Virus record (IMG/VR): IMGVR_UViG_2565956631_000014
Coordinates: 1 to 23,166 of that record
Strand: one strand, 5' to 3'
Source of the DNA: a virus
Lineage: Duplodnaviria; Heunggongvirae; Uroviricota; Caudoviricetes
Length of the DNA: 23,166 nucleotides
Part shown: positions 13,395 through 21,308 of the stretch, in pieces
Position numbering within the stretch: position 1 is the stretch's first letter
Layout: the number at the start of each line of letters is the position of its first letter
Translations under genes and position numbers: made by a program
Notes under the pieces: generated by a model
The model's input: the letters and a program-made list of their open reading frames with translations, nothing else
The model's database searches: none
What the model was told of the DNA's origin: nothing

Positions 13395-15208
13395 TGGCCT
13401 ATAGTCGTGAACAGTTGATGACGGCGTTAAGGAATGCTGATGCTGCCGGCGATACTGAGGGAGCACGTCGCATTGCTCAGATGCTGTCTTCTGGTGATCA
13501 ATCCACTCAAAACCAATCGCAGCCAGAAGAACAATCTCTGGTGGGAAAAGCTACTGACTGGCTCACTGGTGGTCAAAGTGCAGGGCAAATTGCAGAACAG
13601 GCTGGTCGTGGTCTGGTAAACATACCATTTGACGTATTGCAGGGCGGCGCAAGTCTGATTAATGCAATCAGTCAGGGGCTTGGTGGACCCAAGGTTTTGG
13701 ATGATGTTTATCGTCCAGTAGACAGACCGACAGACCCATACGCACAAGCCGGTGAAACAATTGGTGGGTATTTAGTTCCAGGAGTTGGAACGGCAGGAAG
13801 CATGGCTATTGGATCACTGGCAGAGGCCGCAAATCAGAAAGGCGATTTCGCACAAAATGCAGCTAAAAATGCCGGAGTTAACCTTGCCGCTCAAGGTGTT
13901 CTTTCCGCAGCAGCAAAGGGAATAGGGCGTGGAATAACGGCTATAAAAGGTGATATTGCGCCAGAAGTGGCGAAGAAAATTGCCACATCAGAATCGATGG
14001 GCGTGACACCAATGACATCTGATGTTATCCCGCCGAAAAATGCTTTCACTCGCGGCCTTACTCAGGATGCCGAGGGGGCTTTGCTCGGGACAGGATCAAA
14101 GCGAGCCGAGCAGTATGCAAAAAGAAGTCAGCTAGTTAAAAAACAGCTTGAGAAATATGGCGAATATAGCCCATCAGTTGTTGTTGACGATCTGTATGGT
14201 TCTCTGAAGTCAAGGAAGGATTCAGCCGGAAGCGTTATTGAAGACATTACAACCAAAATGGGAGACGCACCTGTTGACACATCAAAATCAATTAAGGTTA
14301 TCGACAACGTACTTACCAGAGCTAACAGGCTTGGGAAAGTGGCAAATAAGGATTTGATTCGCGGGTTATCCGATTTGCGAGAAGAACTTGCTAAACCAGA
14401 TATAGATTTTGGTCTATTGAGAGAGTTACGGTCAGCCTTGAGGGAAAGTATTCAGGGAGATGCCATGGTTTTTCCCAATAGCGCGAAAGCTGCAACTGAT
14501 GCCGTGGAGAGGGCAATGGGTGCAGATTTGAGGAATAACGCAGCACGGTATTTGGGGGCTGGAGAGGCCGCCAGATACGTTAAAGCAAACTCTGACTACT
14601 CCAGCGTCTTCAATAAGGTTCTCAATAAAAGGATTGCGAATAATCTCAACAAAGCTAAAAAAGAGTTTACTCCAGAGCTAATAAACAGCGTTGTATTCAG
14701 CAGAAAACCATCAGATATTAAGAGGATATGGCCTGCTCTTAGTGAAGATGGAAAGAACGCTATGCGTGCTGCTTATATCAGCAAGATTGCAGAAAAAGCA
14801 GGAGACTCGCCAACAAAATTTCTTACCGAGTTAAATAAGTTGAAGTCGCAATCTGACGGTCAGATCTATAACACGATATTCAGTGGGAGACACATGAAAG
14901 AGCTTGATGCTCTTCATGAAGTTCTACAGCAAACAGCAAGGTCGGACACCGCAAATGTGGTAACACAGACGGGGCAATCACAAGCCAACAGGATAAGGAC
15001 GATTGGCGCAACTGCGACTCTTGGGGCAACACTGGCGCTTGAATCTGGTTTCGGTGCAATGATGCGCCTGTATGAGTCCAAAGCAACGAGGAATGCGCTC
15101 TTACGTCTGGCAAATACTAAAGCTGGAACGCCAGCCTATGAAAGAGCGCTGAATAACGCCGCAAATGCCATCAGACCAATACTTGCCAATGATGCAACTG
15201 ATCGCTAA
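13394..15208 (+). CDS. ejection protein, P22 gp16-like
   Basis: 604 aa, start overlaps previous stop (TAATG); size close to P22 gp16. Confidence 0.65.
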
Positions 15209-15229
15209 TGGTTGATGTCATGGATGTTG

Positions 15230-15868
15230 TTAATTGCGAATGGAATCGCGGAACTCTTTACTTGATAGAAAAGGATCTGTTCTCCTTAACTCATCATAGT
15301 TTTTATTAAACTTTCTTGCTTCACCAGGGTATCTGTTGAACAAAACATTGCAGAAAAAAGAGAGCAATAACTCACATATAAATGCTAATATCCTGAAAAA
15401 TAAAGGTATAAAAAGAAGGAAAGGTTCATTGAAGTCTCTATTCCAAACAAAATAGACAATCATCCCGACATACCAAATTGATATCCCTATACTGATGATT
15501 GTTCCAACAGAGGTAACTACGATCCCGATTAAGTCGGACAGTCTGTTTGCCAGTAACTCATTTGAGTATCTTGCAATCATATACCGCCAACATTTTGCAA
15601 TATCATCCTGATCTGTAGAGTCTTCTGGAATGGCTAGGCTTCTACATATTGAAGCAGCTCTTTTTTTCTCAACTCTTTTTGAGAGCCATCCATTAAAGAG
15701 ATACATCAACACCTGCGTTGCTATTCCTGCACCAAGTGATATCAAAGACATCCCCAAAAATCGCCATCCTGGAGATAGTGACTGGTACTGCCAAACAAAA
15801 AAAATTAAAAAACCCAATGAGCCTATGACATAGGCTGATGTATCGCTATATATATCTATTTTTTTCAT
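15230..15868 (-). CDS. multi-pass inner-membrane protein at the sieA position (candidate superinfection-exclusion protein)
   Basis: 212 aa from the internal ATG at 15868, which has AAGGAG 9 nt upstream (track ORF starts 11 codons earlier). Four to five hydrophobic helices (e.g. YVIGSLGFLIFFVWQY, LIGIVVTSVGTIISIGISIWYVGMIVYFVW) with charged loops. Visibly AT-rich relative to flanking structural genes. Convergent with the gp16-like gene. Confidence 0.6.
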   Translation of the reverse strand: MKKIDIYSDTSAYVIGSLGFLIFFVWQYQSLSPGWRFLGMSLISLGAGIATQVLMYLFNGWLSKRVEKKRAASICRSLAIPEDSTDQDDIAKCWRYMIARYSNELLANRLSDLIGIVVTSVGTIISIGISIWYVGMIVYFVWNRDFNEPFLLFIPLFFRILAFICELLLSFFCNVLFNRYPGEARKFNKNYDELRRTDPFLSSKEFRDSIRN

Positions 15869-15918
15869 TGAGTAGCCACTCCTTAGTTTTGAGCAGAACA
15901 CCGGATGATAATGTTTTG

Positions 15919-16170
15919 TTATGTGTCTTTTGGGATTCTATCCAGTAACTCGTTGGAAATTTTATCAAGTAAAGATTTTATTTGTTTAAGATCTAATGAT
16001 TTGTCTACTGATGAGACGTCAGATGATAACGCATCCTCAAGAATTTGAACTATCTCTGAGTTCATAGATCGACCGTTTCGTTTAGCCCTTTCCGCAATAG
16101 CACTACGCATGCCGTCAGGCATTCTAACCGTAAATCTTTCTATGAAATTTGATTCGTCTTTTTCTGACAT
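15919..16170 (-). CDS. mnt: Mnt-like ribbon-helix-helix repressor
   Basis: 83 aa from ATG 16170 (track ORF has a 16-codon upstream extension). N-terminal RHH motif FTVRMPDGMRSAIAERAKRNGRSMNSEIVQILEDAL resembles P22 Mnt (FNFRMPMEVREKLKFRAEANGRSMNSELLQIVQDAL); C-terminal helical tail. Divergent from the arc-like gene. Confidence 0.7.
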   Translation of the reverse strand: MSEKDESNFIERFTVRMPDGMRSAIAERAKRNGRSMNSEIVQILEDALSSDVSSVDKSLDLKQIKSLLDKISNELLDRIPKDT

Positions 16171-16219
16171 TTTCTTATTCGCAAGGCATATGAGCAATAA
16201 AAAACACAGTAGCATCATA

Positions 16220-16274
16220 TTGACATTATGAGCAATGGCATCATAATGGTGTCATGACATCATGGTGATGTCAT
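16220..16274 (+). promoter_or_regulatory. sigma-70-like promoter plus 21-bp palindromic operator in the mnt/arc divergent region
   Basis: Seen directly: TTGACA at 16220..16225, 16-nt spacer, CATAAT at 16242..16247, oriented toward arc. Palindrome ATGACATCA-tgg-TGATGTCAT at 16254..16274 lies between the -10 and the arc start. TGACATTATGA-like motifs repeat at 16221 and 16269. Confidence 0.55.
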
Positions 16275-16290
16275 TATGACGGAGATATTG

Positions 16291-16467
16291 ATGATGAGCG
16301 ATGTTCTTTACAGTGGTCGTAAAAGTCAGAGTTTCCAGCTTCGTTTGCCAGCGCGAATGAAGGAGGAGATCAGACGCGTAGCTGAAATGGATGGAATTTC
16401 TATCAACTCTGCGATTGTGCAGCGACTGGCTAAAAGCCTGAGAGAGGAAAGAGCTAATGCCCAGTAA
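16291..16467 (+). CDS. arc: Arc-like ribbon-helix-helix repressor
   Basis: 58 aa from ATG 16291 (GGAG 6 nt upstream; alternative ATG 16276). RHH signature FQLRLPARMKEEIRRVAEMDGISINSAIVQRL is comparable to P22 Arc (FNLRWPREVLDLVRKVAEENGRSVNSEIYQRV). Confidence 0.7.
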   Translation: MMSDVLYSGRKSQSFQLRLPARMKEEIRRVAEMDGISINSAIVQRLAKSLREERANAQ

Positions 16468-16540
16468 AAATAGTGAAGCCCGGAAGTGCGCGAACACAAA
16501 CCGGGCCTCTATGTCAGTAACCGTACTCAAGGAAACTAAC

Positions 16541-17179
16541 ATGAATATTGTAGCAAAATCAGATTATAACTTCCAAGGATTCACTTTTAACCCTGTAACA
16601 GAGGGCGGGTCTATCTGGTTTACCTCCACCGAACTAGCTAAGGCTCTCGGCTATAAAAAAACTGATGCCATCAGCCAAATTTATGCCCGTAATGCTGACG
16701 AATTTTCCGACTCAATGTCATTGACCCTCAATATGAAGGTCAACGGAATAAACAATAGCTTACGTAACAAATCGGTCAGAGTTTACTCACTCCGAGGCGC
16801 TCACTTGGTGGCGATGTTTGCTTCTACGCCCAAGGCCAAAGAGTTCCGCCGCTGGGTGCTGGATATTTTGGATCGGCAGGCAGAATGCTCACCGATTGCA
16901 AAACAGTTTACTGACGAAGAACTGGTTAATCTCTGCTACTTACAATTGTGGATGGAGAAGAGTCAACAAATGTGCAAACACATCTACCCTGGAATGAAGC
17001 AAATTGGTTCTGAGCTTTCAGGAAAGATTTACGATATTGCATATGAGACTCGCTACATGTCAGAAGAAACCAAGAAATCGCTTCTTCGTGAAATGAAGAA
17101 TCTTGATCCCAACAATTTTGTCGTAAAGAACGCTCAGCCAATGCTGGCAAAACTTCGCGGCGAGGAATGGATTCATTGA
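16541..17179 (+). CDS. antirepressor-like protein with Bro-N-type N-terminal domain
   Basis: 212 aa from ATG 16541 (AAGGAA SD; track ORF starts 28 codons earlier). Bro-N-like motifs: GSIWFTSTELAKALGY, VRVYSLRGAHLVAMFASTPKAKEFRRWV. Sits where ant lies in P22 immI. Confidence 0.6.
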   Translation: MNIVAKSDYNFQGFTFNPVTEGGSIWFTSTELAKALGYKKTDAISQIYARNADEFSDSMSLTLNMKVNGINNSLRNKSVRVYSLRGAHLVAMFASTPKAKEFRRWVLDILDRQAECSPIAKQFTDEELVNLCYLQLWMEKSQQMCKHIYPGMKQIGSELSGKIYDIAYETRYMSEETKKSLLREMKNLDPNNFVVKNAQPMLAKLRGEEWIH

Positions 17180-17266
17180 TTGGCGCACAGGACGGCGCAA
17201 AAGAAAACCGCCAGTGTGCTGCTGGCGGCCTATGTCACACCCTTACTACCACATAAGGAATGCCTA

Positions 17267-17995
17267 ATGACTTTTAAGAATGTAGCAAACATCGGATCCG
17301 TTGTCACGGATAAAACCATTGATAGCCAGTACCTGTTAGAGATGGTCAATCATGCTCGTAGACAGTGCGGGGAAAAAGAAGTCCGAAATAACGACTTTAT
17401 TGCACGCATTAAGGATGAACTTGAAGGTGAGCACTACGAAATTTTCGTAGTTCAAAAATCAAACAAGACAACTTCTGAAAAAGTTGTTATGTCAATTAAG
17501 CAAGCCCTTCGAGTGGCTGCTCGTGAATCTAAAGCTGTTCGCCGCTCACTTGTAGACCAACTTGAAAGTATGCAAGAAGCGCACATTAAAAGCGGTAAAT
17601 CGTCGAGTGGACTTGTTGAGTATCGCCAGGCGCGAACATTGAAAATGACGGTTGAAGCTGTTACCAATCTGTTCGATTTGATGCCAAATCTTGCGCCGGA
17701 AGCAAAGCAGACTGCGGCAGCAAGCATAATCAACCCGCTCGTTGGTTTTAATGCAATACCTCTTCCGGCAATAGAAGAGCATTACTACTCAGCAGGGGAG
17801 GTTGCAGAGCAGCTTGGAGTAACGGCCAACAAGATTGGTCGCATTGCTAACGCAAACAACCTCAAAACTGAGCAGTACGGGAAGTTCTTCTTGGATAAAT
17901 CTGCGCATTCAAGCAAACAGGTGGAAGCATTCCGCTACAATGCGGAGGGTGTTAAAGCACTACAACACCTGATTCATGGGAGCAATGTTGCATAA
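17267..17995 (+). CDS. antirepressor-like protein with KilAC/ANT-type C-terminal domain
   Basis: 242 aa from ATG 17267 (AAGGAA SD; track ORF starts at 17180). C-terminal YYSAGEVAEQLGVTANKIGRIANANNL fits the KilAC/ANT pattern found in the C-terminal half of P22 Ant; N-terminus is Rha-like. Confidence 0.5.
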   Translation: MTFKNVANIGSVVTDKTIDSQYLLEMVNHARRQCGEKEVRNNDFIARIKDELEGEHYEIFVVQKSNKTTSEKVVMSIKQALRVAARESKAVRRSLVDQLESMQEAHIKSGKSSSGLVEYRQARTLKMTVEAVTNLFDLMPNLAPEAKQTAAASIINPLVGFNAIPLPAIEEHYYSAGEVAEQLGVTANKIGRIANANNLKTEQYGKFFLDKSAHSSKQVEAFRYNAEGVKALQHLIHGSNVA

Positions 17996-18216
17996 TGGCA
18001 AAGAAAAGATATGGCATTATGCCGCCAAGAATCAAAGGAAGAGCCAGGGTAAAAGGAGATGCTGGAAGGTATCACATTCTTGGAGTTCTGTGGCATGAGA
18101 GAGCTTTAATTTTAAGTAGACCTCATGGGTACATTGAAAAGGTATCTATAGATAGAGTAGAGATTCTTCCCCTTACACCTGAAGAAGAAGAAACTTACGG
18201 ACTTTTTGATAACTAA
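17995..18216 (+). CDS. hypothetical small basic protein (73 aa)
   Basis: Start overlaps the previous stop (TAATG); followed 8 nt later by a strong terminator. No recognisable motif. Confidence 0.45.
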   Translation: MAKKRYGIMPPRIKGRARVKGDAGRYHILGVLWHERALILSRPHGYIEKVSIDRVEILPLTPEEEETYGLFDN

Positions 18217-18223
18217 CCAATTA

Positions 18224-18252
18224 AACCCGCTTAATCGCGGGTTTTTTCTTTT
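18224..18252. terminator. Rho-independent terminator (strong for + strand, possibly bidirectional)
   Basis: Seen directly: AACCCGC-ttaatc-GCGGGTT hairpin followed by TTTTTTCTTTTC on the + strand. The hairpin also contains the stop codon of the minus-strand Mnt-like gene. Confidence 0.75.
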
Positions 18253-18488
18253 CTAAGAATATCAGCCGCAACTTCTTTTACTCGTTCCGAGATTAATGAG
18301 GCAAGCCTCTCTTCTTCATCACGATACCCGCTTACAGGTGATGGTTTGGAGAGCGATTCTTCCATCGTAGCCACAATTTCGGAATTGATAGACCTGTTAT
18401 TCATTTTTGCACGTTGCTTAATCTTGGCGTGCAACTCGTGCGTAAGCCTCAAGTGGAACTGCGCCTCATCGTATTTGCTGTACATCAT
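18231..18488 (-). CDS. mnt: Mnt-like ribbon-helix-helix repressor (second paralogue)
   Basis: 85 aa from the ATG ATG at 18488/18485 (GAGG 7 nt upstream); the 217-aa track ORF is an upstream read-through. Strong resemblance to P22 Mnt: FHLRLTHELHAKIKQRAKMNNRSINSEIVATMEESLSKPSPVSGYRDEEERLA versus FNFRMPMEVREKLKFRAEANGRSMNSELLQIVQDALSKPSPVTGYRNDAERLA. Confidence 0.7.
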   Translation of the reverse strand: MMYSKYDEAQFHLRLTHELHAKIKQRAKMNNRSINSEIVATMEESLSKPSPVSGYRDEEERLASLISERVKEVAADILRKEKTRD

Positions 18489-18620
18489 CAATGCCTCACC
18501 AAATGGGTGGAATGGCATCGTAAAACCTACTGTACAAATCAACAATCGTACCGTTTCGGTATGCAACAAATACCAACCGTAGCCATGCTGCGGCCATTCC
18601 TTGTATCTGGAGCAAATTAA

Positions 18621-21308
18621 ATGACAGACATTACAGCCAATGTTGTAGTGAGCATGCCTTCGCAACTCTTCACTATGGCGCGTTCTTTTAAAGCGGTTGC
18701 CAATGGCAAAATTTATATCGGTAAAATTGACACTGACCCGGTAAATCCTGAAAACCAGATTCAGGTTTATGTTGAGAATGAAGACGGTTCTCACGTTCCT
18801 GTTTCGCAACCAATCATCATTAACGCTGCTGGTTACCCGGTATATAACGGACAGATTGCCAAGTTCGTAACTGTGCAAGGCCACTCTATGGCTGTTTATG
18901 ATGCGTATGGTGCGCAGCAGTTCTATTTTCCTAATGTGCTGAAGTATGACCCTGATCAGTCATTGAAATATGTAGAAGGGGCATTGCTTGTTACTGACTT
19001 AGGTAATGGGACGTTTAAGAATAGTAGAAAAGACGTTGCCATTGGGGATAATCTAACAGGAACCAATTTTATTAGAATAAACGGCGGCGTCTATAAATGC
19101 ACTCCAGTTGCAACTGGAATTGTTACTGAGATCAAACATAGATACATTATCGCAGGCGGGGTTAAAAGCTACCTGTCTCATATTTCTAGGCATGTCAGTG
19201 GTACGCGTAGGCCGCTGAACTGGAAATTAGAATTCAGCATCATAGACGATGAGATTACCGCAGATCTTAAAGATCAGTATGGTTACACGACCATGGGATT
19301 TCAGGGGATTTACATAGACAGCAATGATGGAATGGTATACATCGGCTGGCAGACGCTAGACCCCGCATCGGTATGGGTTACGGTGCATGACTGGGTAACA
19401 GGAGCATTGGTAACACGTCTTCATTTTCCGAATAACGTTGGTGCACCAGAAGGCATCCACGTTTACCGAGTGGCAGGACAGCGTTACATCCTGCTGCCGT
19501 ACAGCCCATCTCGCACTATCAGAATTTACCCTATCGAAGATCCGCGTACGCTGGTTGATAAAACGCAGATTACAAACTTCACTGAATCAACACGCCTTGG
19601 AGTGCGATATCAGTTTAGTGGCTTTGGTAATACCCTGATATACGAAAATGCGGATATGGGTTGGCCGAAAATTTTTGATGTTGAGACAGGTGTATCCAAT
19701 ATCTTTAACACACTGGATATTAACAGCCTTATAGAAGGATCTTACAGTCCAATGGGGACTATTACGGTTGATGCAAATGTTGGAGGTCGCGGAGCCGGTA
19801 AACCAAAACGGCAGGGTGTCGCTCTTGGTTCTCAACGGATATTTGCTGGTATTGGTGCATCTACCACGGCGGGATCTGGAAATACTTTCGCAGGGTTGCA
19901 GGGTTATATTGAGTACAGCCTTAATGGTTCAGAATTAGGTCAGTACCTGCTGTCACCTGCAGATTTCAAAACATACTGGGATAGTTATTCAGGGAAGAGT
20001 GTTTACTCCACTGAAAATGAGGGGGTGCAGTCTTGTGATATTTCTGGCTCTGAGGAATTGTATCTTCTACAGTCTATTCGCTATGACAATGGGGGCGGAT
20101 CAAATTATAGGACTTTAAACATCATTCGCGCTAACTGTCCATCTAATGAACCTGGAACAGTAGACATGACTCCGCTATCCAATGCCTCATCACAGTTATT
20201 TAACCCTCGCGGAAGGGTGATTAACGCTGGCCGTCACCCTGTAAACCCGGCTGATGGTATTGCGCTATTTACATCGGCACAGGCTATTTGTGACTATTTG
20301 CGGAATACAGATGCAGGTAGATATGTGACATATCTTGAACAGGATATGCCACTGTTTGAAGGTGGGCCATCTGCGCCAGGACAGATGACGCTGCCAGCAT
20401 TCTGCCTATTGCAGATCGACTTCATCAACGGCGATACCTGGGAAATTACAGTTAATGGAACTAACAGGGCTAATAATTATACAGGAAGGATTTCCAAAAA
20501 CGGCGGGTACAACTCTTTTACTAAGGTGTCCTCCCGCAGCATGTCGATTCTCGGATCCCCTGGTCTGGTTGATGTATCAATTCGCTCACCTAACTCACTA
20601 AATCTTCCAGAATTTGCTGGAGACTGGTCTACTGGTGTAAGTATAGGAGCTGCAGGTGGGGTGACAAACTGGCAGCCAGAAGGAACAGGTAACGGAGCAT
20701 TATGGGAGTCAGGATATGCAAAAAACCGTGTGTTGCAGATATTCATGTCCACAACATCAAAACTGTTCTTCCGCTACGCAGACGATGCTATTCGCGCAGG
20801 TAACACAGGCTGGGCTGAGGCATGGTCGTCGCTGAACACGACCGTCGATTCAAGTGGTTTCATCAAAAAAGCCTCTCCGGTTGTGAAGATTTTCTCAGAC
20901 GGTAGTAGTGAAACAAATCGCGAATCAGATGGGGTAACCGTCACACGGCTGGCATTGGGTGAATATCTGATTGAGGGTTGCGTAGGTCTGAATGCAGATG
21001 CTTCATGGGGGGGGATTGATGGTGGATTTGAAATACCGCAGGACCGAAACAAGCAGCCGCTCATCTGGCTGGATTATGTTGTTAACCAAGATGGATCTGT
21101 GTTGGTGAAAACGTTTCACCGCACTCATGATAACTCGCCCGTTTTTGCACGTAACGACATCCCTGGTGTTTCGAACGGTGACCCGATCGACATTCCTGCT
21201 AATCAATTCGTTTCTGTGCGAGTACAGATGCCTGAGGATTCTGCATGGAATAAGCTTAAGGAACAACTAAATAAGGCTGAATTGATAGAAGATGATGTTG
21301 TGGAATAG
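18621..21308 (+). CDS. tailspike protein: P22 gp9-type head-binding N-terminus, uncharacterised receptor-binding C-terminal region
   Basis: 895 aa; GGAG SD. First ~115 aa ([43 protein letters not shown]...VLKYDPDQ) are near-identical to the P22-family tailspike head-binding domain. The remaining ~780 aa show no motif I recognise. Confidence 0.85.

Follow-up and report, generated by a model that had tools for sequence, protein, structure and literature searches.

A putative orphan Mnt repressor beside the tailspike gene of a P22-like prophage, with a predicted operator of its own and a separate antirepressor cassette behind it

The stretch analysed here (the window, 23,166 nucleotides; positions 1 to 23,166 of IMG/VR record IMGVR_UViG_2565956631_000014) is the late region of a P22-like (Lederbergvirus) prophage, and it encodes two small proteins resembling the P22 repressor Mnt, here called Mnt1 and Mnt2. 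The gene for Mnt1 opens an antirepressor (ant) cassette, and mnt2 lies behind that cassette, antisense to and directly upstream of the tailspike gene. From sequence comparison, we consider it rather likely that mnt2 encodes a functional orphan Mnt, the remnant of a P22-type immI region, and that the ant cassette is independent and has a switch of its own. Mnt2 probably does not control the adjacent antirepressor genes. The locus would then be annotated as one orphan Mnt and one independent ant cassette, and not as two redundant repressors.

mnt2 and its product

The mnt2 open reading frame (ORF) begins on the minus strand at ATG 18488 (85 amino acids, aa) or ATG 18485 (84 aa), the latter being the start in most orthologues, and ends at TAA 18233..18231. 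Its product matched the Pfam family Arc (PF03869, E=4e-15, residues 8-53), P22 Mnt by BLASTP (47% identity over 73 aa, E=5e-24, residues 7-79), the PDB entry 1MNT (E=3e-16, residues 7-79) and, over its full length, phrog_795 (6.5e-33). It also carries the Mnt-type C-terminal region (SKPSPVxGYR..AERLA..), which is the part distinguishing Mnt from Arc. P22 Mnt (X01916, 1MNT) has the same arrangement of a ribbon-helix-helix (RHH) domain and C-terminal region, and the two genes agree in promoter register and in a 17-bp dyad placed 1 nt from the -35 hexamer. Judged by these comparisons, mnt2 is a true orthologue of P22 mnt. PGAP places the start of Mnt2 ten codons further upstream, at ATG 18518 (95 aa); the 84/85-aa start is more likely, because ATG 18518 falls inside the -10 hexamer predicted by homology to P22.

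The match of Mnt1 to P22 Mnt was confined to the 38-aa RHH part, and its match to Mnt2 (43% over 37 aa) covered the DNA-binding domain only. Mnt1 lacks the Mnt-type C-terminal region, and sequence comparison detected no similarity between its C-terminal half and that of Mnt. AmrZ is its best relative among solved structures and phrog_1287 its best PHROG, and none of the phage records matched it over 80% of its length. The N-terminal residues that read the DNA (the reading head) are ..RFTVRMP in Mnt1 and ..AQFHLRLT in Mnt2. The original prediction, made from the window's sequence, had described mnt2 as a second mnt paralogue, closer to P22 Mnt than the first and different in its DNA-reading residues. 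Both comparisons hold, while "paralogue" is loose: the DNA-binding domain is common to the two proteins, but their C-terminal regions and best PHROG families differ. Identical copies of the Mnt2 protein were found on >1000 public contigs and of the Mnt1 protein on 570, mostly under the names "Arc family DNA-binding protein" or "regulatory protein mnt". For the Mnt1 gene of E. coli UTAK-1, the PGAP annotation is a pseudogene truncated at its C-terminal end.

Predicted promoter and operator of mnt2

The spacer between mnt2 and the divergent tailspike gene (18489..18620, 132 bp) was aligned to the annotated P22 immI record X01916 and to the spacers of Sf101, IME10, Gally, ST160, ST64T, Brookers, VSe13 and JEP4. 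The features of this part of the window are as follows.

18223..18253, both strands: terminator hairpin and plus-strand T-run, ending the arc-ant1-ant2-orf73 operon; weaker terminator for mnt2
18231..18488, minus strand: mnt2, intact orthologue of P22 mnt (phrog_795)
18494..18500, minus strand: mnt2 Shine-Dalgarno sequence GGTGAGG, read from the sequence and kept across the class
18517..18522, minus strand: predicted Pmnt2 -10, TACGAT, aligned to P22 Pmnt -10 TATCAT
18540..18545, minus strand: predicted Pmnt2 -35, TTGTTG, with a 17-nt spacer, aligned to P22 Pmnt -35 TTGAGA
18547..18563, both strands: Omnt2, predicted 17-bp dyad operator CGTACCGTTTCGGTATG, in register with P22 AGGTCCACGGTGGACCT
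18577..18594, plus strand: boundary sequence CCGTAGCCATGCTGCGGC, putative recombination joint where the mnt module meets the tailspike leader
18609-18612, plus strand: tailspike ribosome-binding site GGAG
18621-21308, plus strand: tailspike gene, with a P22-type head-binding N-terminus

Omnt2 sits 1 nt upstream of the Pmnt2 -35 hexamer, which is the geometry of P22 Omnt, and 58 nt before the tailspike start codon. A spacer of about 130 bp had been expected to hold the mnt2 promoter and any upstream signals of the tailspike gene, and it appears to hold both, the promoter by homology. The boundary motif CCGTAGCCAYGCTGCGGC has an exact match at 18577-18594. Two copies of the boundary sequence are present in the P22 ant-gene 9 spacer, and the feature underlying the match of the CUS-3 record to the window is named "bsq1; boundary sequence". 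Literature searches on mnt in Sf101 and on boundary sequences returned nothing usable.

Among 63 distinct spacers, per-column conservation was 89-97% in the mnt-proximal part, consisting of leader, -10, spacer, -35 and operator, and 67-78% in the distal part. The Pmnt2 -10 reached 97%, and the outer operator half-sites GTACC/GGTA were at least 95% conserved. A2 and T6 of the Pmnt -10 were kept in the compared representatives of each class.

On the tailspike side of the operator the window departs from P22. No arc-ant follows downstream, and the operator is succeeded by the boundary sequence and the tailspike gene. Where P22 has the -10 hexamer of its ant promoter Pant (TATATT), the window reads CAAATC, and the -35 equivalent, ATGGCA, stands at the wrong spacing, so the rightward Pant equivalent appears to have decayed and Mnt2 would therefore not switch the resident ant genes. 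The best candidate for a rightward promoter toward the tailspike gene, ATGGCA-15-TACAAA, was rejected, though not rigorously, for its poor spacer and missing T6. A conserved inverted repeat, AATGCCTCACC ... GGTGGAATGGCAT, flanks the mnt2 Shine-Dalgarno sequence (18490-18518), with TGATGCC...GGCATCA as its equivalent in the ST64T class; it could fold as RNA within the late transcript or serve as another protein site.

Operator classes and reading heads

Relatives of Mnt were collected from GenBank phages, IMG/VR (the best 80 of 438) and GTDB genomes, and their neighbours were mapped by tblastn. In this collection the operator co-varied with the N-terminal reading head of Mnt, giving four classes.

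Reading head HFNFRM: operator AGGTCCACGGTGGACC
Reading head QFNLRL: operator AAGACCACnGTGGTCT
Reading head QFNFRM: operator ATATCACGGTGATAT
Reading head KYDEAQFHLRL (the Mnt2 class): operator GTACC(R)TTT(M)GGTA

The reading head of Mnt2, KYDEAQFHLRL, compares with RDDPHFNFRM in P22 Mnt, and the core of Omnt2, GTACCGTTTCGGTA, with GGTCCACGGTGGACC in the P22 operator. Youderian and colleagues in 1983, and Knight and Sauer in 1989, are said to have found that N-terminal residues of Mnt and Arc determine operator specificity, and the covariation is the pattern which that would predict. The classes provide a natural table of reading-head/operator pairs for RHH recognition.

The Mnt2-class motif occurred once in each of the Mnt2-class loci (87/87), always within 120 nt of mnt2. 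It was found at the ant promoter in 0 of the 87 and in none of the loci of other classes (0/16). The window has a single copy (18548-18561) and no other site at up to 2 mismatches; the complete Sf101 genome also has a single copy, 48 nt before the tailspike start. No operator shared by Mnt1 and Mnt2 is predicted from these sites, which answers the objection, raised with the original prediction, that both proteins might bind the same one.

At least four classes of operator and reading head are what an arms race would give, and Mnt2 might act in trans, silencing the ant promoter of superinfecting relatives with the same operator class and so guarding against induction by Ant; Mnt1 and Mnt2 would then represent two immunity specificities. 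P22 Ant acts on heterologous repressors, and many prophages keep Mnt although they have no ant, both of which fit this idea. However, arc-ant stood beside the Mnt2-class operator in 0 of about 75 IMG/VR loci. No ant promoter of this class turned up when IMG/VR was scanned for TTGACA-N20-40-GTACCRTTTMGGTA, in which a consensus -35 precedes the operator by 20-40 nt. The scan gave only 11 environmental contigs, which we took as chance matches because they showed no similarity to the window's RHH or antirepressor proteins. Since the loci lack arc-ant and the contigs are unrelated, the Mnt2 class has no known target phage, and we regard such trans immunity as quite unlikely. Three environmental IMG/VR contigs (our loci L105, L111 and L113) have TTGACA-17-TATACT followed directly by the palindrome GGTACCATTTAGGTACC; no similarity to the window's proteins was detected in them, and the palindrome may be due to chance or may be the similar operator of some unrelated repressor system.

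Selection on mnt2

Of 100 copies of mnt2, 98 read in frame to 82-89 aa. The disrupted copies were one in Citrobacter (L015, 3501-3752), with TAG at codon 5, and one in E. coli A30 (L013, 1383-4125), split by the insertion sequence ISEc22. The median pairwise ratio of nonsynonymous to synonymous substitution rates (dN/dS) was 0.135 in the Mnt2 class (483 pairs, dS 0.1-2). These figures indicate that mnt2 is under purifying selection, and they do not fit the pseudogene that the original prediction had named as a way of being wrong.

The paper on phage L, which has a comparable mnt-only region, asks whether its mnt "acquired another function or is a remnant" (PMC8022706). A functionless leftover of a degraded immI region would account for the missing arc and ant, for CAAATC at the P22 Pant -10 position, and for the one prematurely stopped and the one split copy. 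Decay is nevertheless hard to reconcile with the low dN/dS and the intact reading frames, with half-sites conserved at 95% or more in an operator that co-varies with the reading head, and with the retention of A2 and T6 in the Pmnt -10, and we consider a decaying remnant very improbable. The question asked of phage L becomes sharper in this light, namely what purpose Mnt has without Ant, and the window is a clean test bed for it.

The terminator shared by mnt2 and the ant operon

The hairpin at the 3' end of mnt2 has an 8-bp stem, formed by AAACCCGC (18223-18230) and GCGGGTTT (18237-18244), around the loop TTAATC (18231-18236). Its folding energy is -12.8 kcal/mol, z is -3.8 for either strand, and its plus-strand tail is TTTTCTTTTCT; in the U-tract test, the plus strand gave the 8-bp stem followed by UUUUCUUUU. 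The mnt2 stop codon lies in the loop, the final three sense codons (ACC CGC GAT) make up the 3' arm, and the T-run corresponds to Lys codons at the Mnt2 C-terminus, so that the last codons and stop of mnt2 do lie within the hairpin ending the plus-strand ant operon, as had been proposed. The hairpin had also been called a bidirectional terminator. This is correct for the plus strand, where it is a textbook terminator, and doubtful for the minus strand, where the tail after the stem, AAUUGGUUAG, is a poor U-tract and the terminator scan made no call. A stop codon inside the hairpin was also seen in ST160 and Gally (clean) and in P22 (imperfect stem), and in P22, as here, the opposite-strand T-run encodes the C-terminal lysines. 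The ant operon has borrowed mnt's own terminator.

The resident antirepressor cassette

The plus strand up to 15208 carries terminase, portal, coat and ejection genes. The variable region after it, an "ant moron" in the wording of the epsilon34 paper (PMC2629481), contains the following features upstream of the hairpin.

15233-15868, minus strand: SieA-like gene (phrog_7745)
15922-16170, minus strand: Mnt1, RHH repressor of the ant cassette (Pfam Arc, phrog_1287)
16241-16214, minus strand: divergent promoter ATGCCA-16-TATGAT, pointing to Mnt1
16220-16247, plus strand: promoter Pant1, TTGACA-16-CATAAT (11/12 in the promoter scan)
16224-16248: 8-bp inverted repeat CATTATGA/TCATAATG, candidate Arc site in the -35 to -10 region
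16254-16274: perfect 9+9 palindrome ATGACATCAtggTGATGTCAT, candidate Mnt1 operator just past the -10
16291/16294-16467, plus strand: arc (Pfam Arc)
16541-17179, plus strand: ant1 (Bro-N and P22_AR_C)
17267-17995, plus strand: ant2, anti-repressor (phrog_1726)
17995-18216, plus strand: orf73 (phrog_4977), function not known for that family

The first cassette (15922-17179) is a trio of repressor, Arc and antirepressor genes with divergent overlapping promoters, as in P22 immI. In P22, Arc binds the -35 to -10 region and Mnt just after the -10, and the inverted repeat and the palindrome match these positions. By the same layout, mnt2 would need an operator overlapping an adjacent arc-ant promoter, and neither arc nor ant follows its operator. 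The Pant1 palindrome is unique in the window, and cassettes with another left-hand regulator carry the palindrome TTGGTTCTAGAACCAA at the same place; the ATGACATCAtggTGATGTCAT/TTGGTTCTAGAACCAA cassettes are a second natural series of RHH repressor-operator pairs. Salmonella phage SPN3UB, which is not a Lederbergvirus, has the gene order of window positions 15922-18216, with about 95% nucleotide identity in ant, but it has neither a Mnt-type gene nor a tailspike gene after the cassette, and its left-hand regulator is longer (108 aa). By gene content and distribution, then, the ant cassette is separate, self-contained and horizontally mobile, and the resident antirepressor switch would be better studied through Mnt1 and Arc than through the most Mnt-like protein.

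Dual immunity in cis, one of two arrangements offered in the original prediction, would have both Mnt proteins silence the resident ant operon, with Mnt2 acting on Pant1, or with Pmnt2 transcription converging on the operon. The two units do converge on one shared hairpin, and the poor minus-strand U-tract could let mnt2 transcripts extend, antisense, into orf73 and ant2. In addition, every copy at least 98% identical to Mnt2 (L022-L062) has an ant1/ant2 cassette behind it. Nevertheless, nothing resembling Omnt2 was found at Pant1 or, at up to 2 mismatches, elsewhere in the window, and the single site in each of the 87 class loci was never at an ant promoter. The class is also kept where the region has no ant (Sf101, IME10, L091-L101), and cassettes with unrelated left-hand regulators, a C2-like repressor in JEP4 among them, all adjoin the same mnt2. 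In L022-L062 the left-hand regulator is Mnt1 or a variant at 71% or 52%, or none was detected. This arrangement is, in our estimate, highly improbable, and an independent cassette beside an orphan Mnt is preferred.

The control region 16214-16279 is crowded with TCATA/TATGA-type repeats. The ant operon ends distally with ant2 and orf73 (17267-18216); ant2 has no Pfam domain and is called KilA in the JEP4 record, and orf73 is variably present between cassettes that are otherwise near-identical. Searching 15000-19000 with Rfam (E<=1) gave no family, neither one like sar, the antisense RNA of P22 immI, nor any other, although the presence of a sar model in Rfam was unconfirmed and a diverged small RNA would be missed.

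Distribution and mosaic origin of the mnt2 unit

Wherever both genes were detected in a Mnt2-class locus, mnt was divergent from and adjacent to the tailspike head-binding domain. This adjacency was present in about 85 loci, with or without an ant cassette, in Escherichia, Salmonella, Shigella, Citrobacter, Proteus and Providencia. At 65-84% identity, most copies have gene 16 on one side and the tailspike gene directly on the other, and ant is absent (Sf101, IME10, L091-L101); the order mnt-arc(-ant) was found only with distant ..FNFRM copies, in Pluralibacter, Pectobacterium and Phlomobacter. Mnt is a textbook repressor, yet most of the natural mnt genes surveyed do not stand beside an antirepressor gene but alone against the tailspike gene. 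The survey of one versus two mnt copies, proposed earlier as a check, thus shows the mnt2 class with and without an ant cassette and always against the tailspike.

Mnt-only ant morons beside the tailspike gene have been described for ST64T, ST104 and Para1 (PMC2629481). In the mnt-only ant morons compared here (ST64T, ST104, phage L, ST160/SE1, Sf101, IME10 and Gally), mnt is antisense to and directly upstream of the tailspike gene, and operator and boundary sequence are conserved as in the window. The window, JEP4 (where the record names the mnt2 copy "regulatory protein mnt") and at least 25 complete E. coli genomes differ in having a full heterologous repressor-arc-ant-ant2 cassette behind mnt, with the terminator shared. 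Among 5426 complete E. coli genomes, 64 had the mnt2 gene and spacer over at least 80% of their length, and 25 had at least 80% of the query 15800-18700 in one place. Since Mnt-only regions beside the tailspike are already published for ST64T and L, the novelty is modest; what goes beyond the literature that we found is a distinct specificity class with an operator predicted by covariation, a quantified selection, and the regular coexistence with an independent ant cassette that uses the mnt terminator.

The other arrangement offered in the original prediction, recombination between two immI-type regions, agrees with these data, as the mnt2-operator-tailspike unit occurs alone in seven phages (Sf101, IME10, VSe13, ST64T, ST160, Gally and Brookers) and the cassette alone in SPN3UB. 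The window and VSe13, a phage with mnt only, are homologous at nucleotide level from the hairpin (18220) to 20 nt inside the tailspike gene, and these limits therefore mark the edges of the mnt module. One locus, L081 (UViG_2713897197_000002, 211-859), is an intermediate, with mnt2, operator, boundary sequence, an ant fragment, a P22-type terminator and tailspike in succession; the fragment is 330 nt from the C-terminal part of a P22-type ant (93% aa). This layout suggests that arc-ant was lost through recombination at boundary sequences. In Klebsiella phage phiKp_30 (LC768498.2, 5163-6225), which matches window positions 17158-18425, the match takes in the ant2-orf73 stretch and, of Mnt2, only residues 21-85, and a recombination joint inside mnt2 is indicated because the reading head and operator are missing. 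In JEP4 (L001, 5026-5348), the match to the window continues for 13 nt into the tailspike ORF (18621-18633) before the sequences diverge; its annotated tail spike begins 323 nt past mnt, and the usual place holds no P22-type head-binding N-terminus.

A model of the locus and possible roles of Mnt2

Taken together, the terminator hairpin, mnt, Pmnt, the 17-bp operator and the boundary sequence would travel as one unit, left behind when arc and ant were lost from a P22-type immI region at the boundary-sequence joint. The cassette of Mnt1, Arc, Ant1, Ant2 and orf73 lies between the SieA-like gene and this unit, terminating at the mnt hairpin, and ant1 and ant2 would be governed by Mnt1 and Arc at 16220-16274. 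By homology to P22, Mnt2 tetramers would bind the single operator at 18547-18563, sustaining mnt2 transcription in the lysogen and occupying DNA 58 nt before the tailspike start. With a site immediately upstream of the Pmnt2 -35, binding would support rather than block mnt2 transcription; Vershon and colleagues reportedly found in 1987 that P22 Mnt stimulates Pmnt. The tailspike gene would presumably be reached by late-operon read-through across hairpin and operator, as described for P22.

Several points weigh against this model. A consensus promoter scan of 15800-18800 called no promoter in the 132-bp spacer, the -35 of Pmnt2 being weak and below threshold, so Pmnt2 is assigned by homology only, and Pmnt2 and Omnt2 together by alignment and covariation only. 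The Pmnt2 spacer is highly conserved (92%), which might conceal another site or a weak promoter pointing rightward. The survey is skewed to close relatives by its use of the best 80 of 438 IMG/VR matches. Finally, no physiological target of Mnt2 was found beyond its own promoter region, which leaves its selective benefit unexplained.

One such benefit could lie at the tailspike gene. Mnt2 bound 58 nt before it might block stray rightward transcription in the lysogen, and/or an mnt2 antisense RNA might pair with the late mRNA, as is proposed for the BTP1 antisense RNA STnc6030, a prophage transcript which confers superinfection immunity and runs opposite to the late operon where gene 16 meets the tailspike gene, the slot that mnt2 occupies (PMC7067206). 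STnc6030 differs in being non-coding, in starting inside the tailspike gene and in its proven immunity, whereas the mnt2 transcript would be a repressor mRNA. The invariable adjacency of mnt and tailspike and the position of the sole operator in the Sf101 genome are consistent with such a gate, and the epsilon34 paper suggests that Mnt/Arc may influence late transcription passing into the tailspike gene (PMC2629481). On the other hand, HK620, CUS-3 and epsilon34 share the tailspike leader without any nucleotide match to the mnt2 gene or operator, Sf6 lacks the region, and the HK620/Sf6 types may have no Mnt/Arc role in tailspike control (PMC2629481). Shared ancestry alone could explain the adjacency, and there is no evident rightward promoter for Mnt2 to repress, so we think a tailspike gate unlikely.

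A broader form of this idea is somewhat speculative but has a small chance of being right: the Mnt-operator pair might be a conserved, prophage-expressed device at the late-operon/tailspike junction, and not an antirepressor regulator, acting as a roadblock, through antisense immunity, or at sites outside the phage. If true, it would explain purifying selection on mnt2 with or without ant genes.

Names given to mnt genes in public records

The family phrog_795, to which Mnt belongs, is labelled "partition protein ATPase", and RefSeq mnt genes carry the same name (records of ST64T, SE1, epsilon34 and Sf101). Some Mnt copies are named "Toxin-antitoxin HicB antitoxin". On RHH repressors of 83-85 aa, both names look like propagated misannotations.

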